Shown: positions 43,392 to 43,575 of the stretch, piece after piece | Position numbering within the stretch: the stretch's first letter is position 1 | How the letters are laid out: the number at the start of each line of letters is the position of its first letter | Origin: Candidatus Poribacteria bacterium | Lineage (GTDB): Bacteria; Poribacteria; WGA-4E; PCPOR2b | Direction of reading: 5' to 3' | Assembly: GCA_965116925.1 (NCBI GenBank) | Contig: OZ220744.1 | Location: 4,192,001-4,256,000, forward strand | Length of the DNA: 64,000 nt | Notes under the pieces: model-generated | What the model saw: only the letters and a program-made list of their open reading frames with translations | Told to the model about the DNA's origin: nothing | Database searches by the model: none | Position numbers and translations under genes: made by a program

Positions 43392-43443
43392 CGAAAACAA
43401 AAAAAGGGCTGCGTCCTCAAATCGCGCAGCCCCCTTGTTTTCG
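43392..43443 (-). terminator. Leader (attenuator) terminator of cassette A
   Basis: GGGCTGCG-11-CGCAGCCC plus T7 on the minus strand, about 30 nt before the start codon. Confidence 0.75.
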
Positions 43444-43444
43444 A

Positions 43445-43473
43445 TTGAAACCAATGGCATCAAAGGGTATACT
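43445..43473 (+). promoter_or_regulatory. Promoter of the putative antisense RNA, cassette A
   Basis: TTGAAA-17nt-TATACT, conserved at 45898-45926. Confidence 0.65.
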
Positions 43474-43479
43474 ATAAAA

Positions 43480-43575
43480 CAGTTGTTAGGCGTTCTCCCT
43501 AACAATCACGAAGCGATTCGAGGTTATGTCTCGTGCTGCTTCAGGGGGCTTCGAGCGGCAACTCGGAGCTCCCAC
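43480..43575 (+). ncRNA. Putative three-hairpin cis-antisense RNA, copy A
   Basis: Three consecutive stem-loops after a promoter. The 12-bp third stem needs G-U pairs, so it is perfect only on the + strand. Confidence 0.6.

Follow-up and report, generated by a model that had tools for sequence, protein, structure and literature searches.

The window, a 64,000-nt stretch from the single-contig, 6.47-Mb genome of a Candidatus Poribacteria bacterium, holds two copies of a leader that is a real and apparently undescribed RNA control module. Poribacteria are an uncultured phylum known as sponge symbionts. We consider it probable that the leader is a cis-antisense transcription attenuator of the pT181 kind, set at many chromosomal sites, with hypervariable loops and a translational backup. 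As far as the available parts of our sources describe them, antisense attenuators are single plasmid loci, whereas the module found here is seemingly portable and chromosomal, with up to 11 copies per genome. It sits ahead of variable exported proteins of an uncultured phylum, and most copies would carry a different recognition code.

Both copies read on the minus strand, lie 2453 nt apart and are 88% identical across 180 nt. They occupy the gap between an ABC permease and a sugar-isomerase-like gene (window 41068-46134), a variable site at which 0 to 4 leaders per genome were found among the ten relatives compared. Two genes follow each copy:

43082-43360, minus strand: first gene of copy 1, 92 aa, with a signal-like N-terminus, a helical hairpin and four invariant cysteines
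41754-42914, minus strand: second gene of copy 1, 386 aa, with an N-terminal membrane helix and two helical domains, belonging to no family
45380-45814, minus strand: first gene of copy 2, 144 aa, with no Pfam family
44319-45365, minus strand: second gene of copy 2, 348 aa, with a membrane anchor

The first genes resemble each other in the signal-like N-terminus and differ in the mature part. The second genes, otherwise divergent, have in common a C-terminal helical motif of ~35 residues (around YGxEEGLRRLRExDPE), possibly a sorting or binding module. Each cassette ends in a conserved block of ~300 nt (41254-41551 and 44051-44415), with a terminator-like hairpin and repeat sequence in it, and REP-like palindromic repeats flank the cassettes (41117-41237, 43947-44043 and 47891-48006). 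An upstream block at 43575-43845, with hairpins at 43581-43597 and 43685-43721, is common to several leaders of the copy 1 type. At the permease/isomerase-like site, genomes without a leader carry remnants, and duplicated 3' fragments of the permease gene precede extra cassettes. The window also contains two adjacent DDE transposase genes (36230-38622).

A DNA search returned seven matches in the host genome; of 61 related genomes, 21 had matches. Whole-leader profile matches, drawn from 90 loci with partial matches excluded, numbered 93, then 83 without duplicates, 82 of them distinct. The 83 full leaders are spread over 21 genomes, with up to 11 in a genome and six in that of the window. When genomes of all species were scanned, the leader profile scored in all 45 loci titled Poribacteria and in none of the 35 titled otherwise, a further 35 loci having no title shown. 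A covariance model of the antisense core matched 29 of 151 genomes of the phylum, several of the distant matches being partial or decayed. In these searches, which need fairly close sequence and can miss distant relatives, the leader family appears confined to Poribacteria. No leader match came from the plasmid and phage searches, and six viral and three metagenome pattern matches obtained no score with the RNA model. Rfam gave no match at the gathering score and eight below it, none of them a plasmid antisense RNA; the best, isrD, spans the terminator only and was set aside. Nor was a description of the leader RNA found in the literature searched, a scope that left aside subscription papers and the supplements of RNA-motif surveys.

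The 3' half of the leader is built around an intrinsic terminator, which can be extended into a longer stem:

43399-43432, minus strand: intrinsic terminator of copy 1, with its 5' arm at 43432-43425, its 3' arm at 43413-43406 and seven U at 43405-43399
45853-45885, minus strand: intrinsic terminator of copy 2, a G+C hairpin and then a U run (six or seven U in each copy)
43416-43425, minus strand: conserved terminator-loop motif GCGAUUUGAG, the partner of the proposed antiterminator
43461-43467, minus strand: CCCUUUG segment, predicted to pair with the terminator-arm base (43437-43431) in the ON fold; its OFF-fold partner would be the Shine-Dalgarno region
43369-43467, minus strand: long OFF hairpin, the terminator extended so that the Shine-Dalgarno sequence (43374-43369) is hidden

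The initial annotation had reported a terminator in the minus-strand leader of both copies, and this is borne out by the U runs and by z-scores below -6 against shuffled sequences (-6.6 and -6.5). Its distance from the start codon, given as about 30 nt, needs correction, the U run lying 38 nt and the stem 45 nt before the ATG at 43360. The hairpin sits between the antisense-covered region and the ORF. A simple terminator scan, which allows loops of 3-8 nt, did not list it; its loop measures 11 nt. Across the family the terminators are 98.4% paired, all 82 copies have at least five U in the 8 nt that follow, and the loop motif is 86% conserved, compared with 68% in the remainder of the loop. 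The OFF hairpin, absent from the initial annotation, is predicted to be an imperfect stem of ~100 nt. In 66 of 83 copies its C-rich segment is predicted, with a probability above 0.3, to be paired to the ribosome site. Counted by column over the terminator and the long stem, G-U pairs exceed A-C mismatches on the mRNA strand by 14 to 0.

The 5' half is covered, on the opposite strand, by a putative antisense RNA with a promoter of its own:

46037-46065, minus strand: sense promoter of copy 2, TTGACA-17-TAGAGT, 8 nt ahead of hairpin S1
43649-43678, minus strand: candidate sense promoter of copy 1, TTTGCA-18-TATAAT, which would make the leader ~65 nt longer
43445-43473, plus strand: antisense promoter of copy 1, TTGAAA-17-TATACT
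45898-45926, plus strand: antisense promoter of copy 2, TTGAAA-17-TATACT
43480-43575, plus strand: predicted antisense RNA of copy 1, ~95 nt, in the order S3-S2-S1, its 5' end placed from the -10 box
45933-46028, plus strand: predicted antisense RNA of copy 2, with three loops all unlike those of copy 1
43544-43573, plus strand: hairpin S1, 12 bp with a variable 6-nt loop; its 3' strand in the mRNA contains AGCCCCCT (43550-43543)
43510-43542, plus strand: hairpin S2, with a variable 7-nt loop, weak on the mRNA strand
43482-43506, plus strand: hairpin S3, absent or broken in about a tenth of copies

The sense and antisense promoters face each other ~100 nt apart. Both are close to the sigma-70 consensus, making the leaders suited to an in vitro test with E. 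coli RNA polymerase. Copy 1 has no proximal sense promoter; across the family, a sense promoter similar to that of copy 2 is found at most 60 nt upstream of S1 in 48 of 82 copies, and at exactly 8 nt in 32 of those. For the antisense promoter, the -10 box reads TATACT in 73 of 82 copies, the spacer is 17 nt in 72 and the -35 box TTGAAA, TCGAAA or TTGACA in 70, the variants including TATAAT, TACAAT and TTGACA. This -35 box is kept while the mRNA strand that pairs with it varies, which points to a promoter function. We found no control signal for the antisense promoter.

The three-hairpin region folds better as the plus than as the minus strand in both copies (-44.9 vs -35.4 and -50.2 vs -42.8 kcal/mol). 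The mRNA strand has 148 A-C mismatches to 18 G-U pairs in S1 and 128 to 10 in S2. Counted by column over the two stems, A-C prevails in 18 and G-U in 3 (p = 0.0015), and S3 has no such strand bias. Read as antisense, hairpins S2 and S1 together reach 97.2% pairing; 12 of their 23 pairs show double changes, and none of 500 shuffles was as good. Two statements of the initial annotation are upheld by these data: that the stem with the upstream segment is weaker in the sense RNA, as the better plus-strand folding of the hairpin that contains AGCCCCCT and the A-C excess in S1 and S2 indicate, and that the leader is covered by an antisense RNA, for which the convergent promoter and the conserved hairpin structure argue at the level of sequence. 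The prediction of an antisense RNA over the leader is well supported. It does not cover the ribosome site, and a run of at least five U follows S1 in only 3 of 83 copies, so that its 3' end would need Rho or trimming; Rho is present.

Within the antisense-covered region lies the strand that we propose as the main antiterminator, through pairing with the terminator loop:

43513-43522, minus strand: proposed main antiterminator CUCGAAUCGC, which in the mRNA is the S2 3' strand

Across the family this strand and the loop (43425-43416) are 94.8% paired, with double changes at three pairs. Between 6 and 16 of 500 shuffles scored as high, which is marginal as a statistic on its own, and the covariation score is within the range that relatedness alone can give. 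At least nine of the ten pairs are present in 74 of 83 copies. Three details speak for the helix. One of its positions is A-U in two lineages lying apart on the tree, and the copies concerned have insertions through which it grows to 11-12 pairs. Six copies, forming a clade with a different loop, have lost the helix and have a new 11-base match between the S2 5' strand plus loop and the terminator arm. In the window copies, a nested helix between CCCUUUG and the terminator-arm base is predicted to complete the ON fold.

Folding models of the nascent RNA assign the capture of the terminator to S2 in 46 of 82 copies, to S1 in 21 and to neither in 15. In the window copies, the S2 helix reaches a probability of 0.86 and 0.93 as long as the 3' arm is missing. 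Once the arm is present, the terminator wins at equilibrium by 3.5-7.7 kcal/mol, and it is ahead of the S2 ON fold by 7.0 and 7.7 kcal/mol in the window copies. It is then dominant in 75 of 82 copies when antisense RNA is left out of the model, a number that masking of the antisense region raises only to 81. Path barriers, which are upper bounds from a method that omits strand displacement, are 4.8-8.9 kcal/mol for the terminator vs 10.9-18.0 kcal/mol for formation of the S2 helix. Escape from the ON fold faces a barrier of 14-21 kcal/mol, so that this fold would be a trap. The outcome for copy 1 depends on the start site assumed. The energy gain from capture is modest, -4.2 kcal/mol vs -3.0 kcal/mol for scrambled stems, being better in 50 of 82 copies, with no capture in 15 of 82. 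Read-through had been put forward as the default state; the folding models favour the terminator, with the ON fold prevailing until the 3' arm appears and the terminator afterwards. The switch would be leaky, with substantial basal termination.

We suggest the following course of events. Transcription from the sense promoter would produce an mRNA with three weak hairpins in its first 100 nt, and the facing promoter would produce a ~95-nt antisense RNA in which, as its conservation suggests, the same hairpins are stable. With no antisense RNA, the 3' strand of S2 would be in time to capture the long terminator loop, helped by the nested CCCUUUG helix on the arm, and in some copies S1 may offer a second capture route. 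Capture of the loop would block the terminator and leave the ribosome site free. By analogy with pT181 and pCF10, the antisense RNA would bind through its variable loops and take those strands away, allowing the terminator to form. Transcripts that escape are predicted to refold, with the long hairpin closing over the Shine-Dalgarno sequence. With an ON fold that is a kinetic intermediate, a low output is likely, governed by the promoter ratio; copy number and the arrival of a fresh cassette would also count.

Convergent promoters about 100 nt apart could also act without any switch, through transcriptional interference or a roadblock from the antisense promoter, or through decay of the sense-antisense duplex, the terminator then being a fixed, leaky brake. 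The models, which give termination with or without antisense RNA, agree with this explanation, and interference is combined with attenuation in RnaG/icsA, according to the part of its description available to us (PMC2879508). We regard it as unlikely, because it leaves unexplained the conserved loop motif, the rewired S2 match and the conserved antisense hairpins. Duplex decay through RNase III is itself unlikely, given that no catalytic domain of this enzyme was found in any of 20 genomes of the genus by a search that matched 8 of 14 controls. The host genome itself has only a weak hit, to the C-terminal part of the model (G000:C1:1978759-1979016). The corresponding check for Hfq was uninformative, as the model missed bacterial controls.

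Another explanation retains the attenuation and makes S1 its main antiterminator, through AGCCCCCU lengthened by the S1 loop and 5' strand; we think it rather improbable. The initial annotation had likewise looked to S1, pairing AGCCCCCT (starts at 43550 and 46003) with AGGGGGCT (43435 and 45888). The complement does occur in both copies, 115 nt apart from 5' end to 5' end, and an 8-base Watson-Crick match to the terminator arm was obtained in 10 and 17 of 1000 dinucleotide shuffles of the two copies. If the cost of opening hairpins is ignored, the strongest duplex with the arm and loop of the terminator is the one made by S1 in 46 of 82 copies, with -28.1 kcal/mol for copy 1. Its helix arises early in copy 1, where it lifts the terminator barrier from 4.8 to about 8-9 kcal/mol, and its role as predicted captor in 21 of 82 nascent folds makes it a real alternative in part of the family. 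Across the family, however, the AGCCCCCT/AGGGGGCT pairing holds poorly: all eight pairs are present in 4 of 83 copies, the pairing reaches 75.0% over 64 leaders, which 500 of 500 shuffles equalled, and its covariation is at or below that of shuffles. In the models its probability is 0.4-0.7 at several transcript lengths in copy 1 and about 0 in copy 2. S2 provides a run of at least nine pairs with the terminator arm or loop in 77 of 83 copies; for S1 the figure is 9. Judged from these comparisons, the AGCCCCCT/AGGGGGCT helix is probably a side route and the S2-to-loop helix the better proposal, so that the earlier reading had the architecture right and probably the main helix wrong.

A riboswitch or protein-bound leader, in which S2 or the ON fold owes its stability to a bound ligand or RNA-binding protein and the antisense promoter plays a secondary part, would suit a regulon-like arrangement of one leader ahead of many unrelated exported proteins. 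The S2 sequence is also nearly invariant, and a few distant copies are without a recognisable antisense promoter (scores of 5-6 out of 12 in 3 of 82). We give this explanation little chance: the loops are hypervariable (55-59% conserved), unlike a binding pocket, S1 and S2 favour the antisense strand, and no Rfam family matches.

The genes that would be controlled by the attenuator appear to be mostly those of exported proteins and enzymes. A start with a ribosome site was called in 70 of 83 copies; the first ORF has at least 50 aa in 64 of these 70, and a hydrophobic N-terminal stretch is present in 54 of the 64. A family scan covering 76 of 132 downstream ORFs left 67 without a family, and the families found among the cargo are GMC oxidoreductase, vWA, Ig-like Big_5, a restriction-modification protein, helix-turn-helix and DUF7491. 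Neither Pfam nor PHROG gave a family for the four window proteins at an E-value of 0.01 or better, their Atlas matches are under 0.9 or missing, and a fold search gave no match, the best hit (Z 5.4, a helical protein) being uninformative. Their homologues with a taxon name are few and come from Poribacteria. This cargo lends no support to the toxic product and type I toxin-antitoxin logic suggested by the initial annotation. Type I toxins are short and hydrophobic, usually under 60 aa. Despite a predicted antisense RNA, a hairpin that hides the ribosome site, small first genes and tandem arrays, a type I module is very improbable here, since most first genes exceed 80 aa (those in the window have 92 and 144 aa) and have signal-like N-termini and include oxidoreductase and Ig-like proteins, the ribosome site lies outside the antisense RNA, and no toxin was matched by family or fold.

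The leaders lie on small, variable chromosomal islets between housekeeping genes, and no conjugation operon or plasmid rep gene was found downstream of them. In four loci (L004, L020, L034 and L035) the leader has an extra 5' hairpin and is followed by a helix-turn-helix ORF of 94-101 aa. The 94-aa protein has weak matches to replication initiators (E about 0.006), and these leaders are possibly a trace of a mobile-element origin; a longer, Rep-like form was not found, which is weak evidence. Around four loci of the host genome, no integrase was evident by eye from the ORF starts. The idea of an integron attC or recombinase site was dropped on inspection, the GTT/AAC boxes being in reverse order and S3 dispensable.

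Among known systems, the repC attenuator of pT181 comes close in design. In the available part of its account (PMC5435934), its terminator hairpin also hides the ribosome site, and the two systems would share a cis-encoded antisense RNA over the leader and an antiterminator that sequesters part of the terminator. pIP501 and pAM-beta1 are named together with pT181 (PMC2879508, seen in part). Unlike pT181, the Poribacteria leader is chromosomal, with up to 11 full copies per genome, precedes genes for exported proteins and not rep, and has a main antiterminator that would pair with the terminator loop. With no rep gene and no homology, it is not a member of the pT181/pIP501 replication-control families. 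The Anti-Q/Qs-IRS1 pair of pCF10 likewise has convergent promoters, and there the antisense RNA enhances termination in the 5' leader without host factors and can be titrated by sense RNA (PMC3181467, in the part available). Neither a leader peptide gene nor a repressor like those of pCF10 was seen in our leaders, and the RNase III arm of pCF10 would be without its enzyme.

The zipper-type attenuator of pLS20 is similar in its pairing scheme, the terminator loop and stem being taken up by the 3' strand of a weak hairpin (PMC13401043, available in part). As far as that source describes it, the attenuator has a long nested stem and no known trigger; the Poribacteria leader has short nested helices, predicted at 7 + 3 pairs in the window copies, and, unlike pLS20, a built-in antisense promoter and no conjugation genes downstream. 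RnaG/icsA of the Shigella virulence plasmid joins antisense attenuation and interference at a gene outside replication. It differs in being a single, plasmid-borne locus with a 450-nt antisense RNA (PMC2879508, same part). All the examples in the portions of these four sources available to us (PMC5435934, PMC3181467, PMC2879508 and PMC13401043) are plasmid-borne.

The stems of the leader are 92% conserved and the loops 55-59%, and two copies whose stems are at least 90% identical have about half of their loop positions in common. The six full copies of the host genome differ in all three loops; five copies in another genome (G017) share two. U-turn motifs (YUNR) occur in 23, 16 and 43 of 83 copies for the three antisense loops and are not general. 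A tentative further idea, which we think has some chance of being right, is that the copies form a chromosomal library of mutually orthogonal antisense attenuators with islet-specific loop codes, in a lineage apparently without RNase III. Loops differ within a genome no more than between genomes, so orthogonality is put forward here as a hypothesis. If it holds, the loop code of an islet would resemble a plasmid incompatibility group, a new or duplicated cassette would be silenced only by residents with matching loops, and matching copies would share one antisense pool and be dose-compensated. Orthogonality is a central engineering problem for antisense attenuators, according to the available part of one source (PMC3753616), and the family offers dozens of natural loop variants with which it can be tested.

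Incomplete and divergent forms of the leader were also seen. Partial leaders (G000:C1:2775220-2775288 and 2220317-2220469 in the host genome, and L074) are of three types: S1-S2 without the terminator, the terminator without S1-S2, and a copy from which both the terminator and the antisense -35 box are lost. A compact variant (L236:1500-1620, G027) consists of S1, half of S2 and a terminator with a loop that can pair with the S2 5' strand by complementarity; it lacks the usual antisense promoter. In a genome of another family (G098), a leader together with the beginning of its cargo gene (L226:1140-1628) is 89% identical over ~500 nt to copies from the genus of the window, which may reflect horizontal transfer or a binning error.
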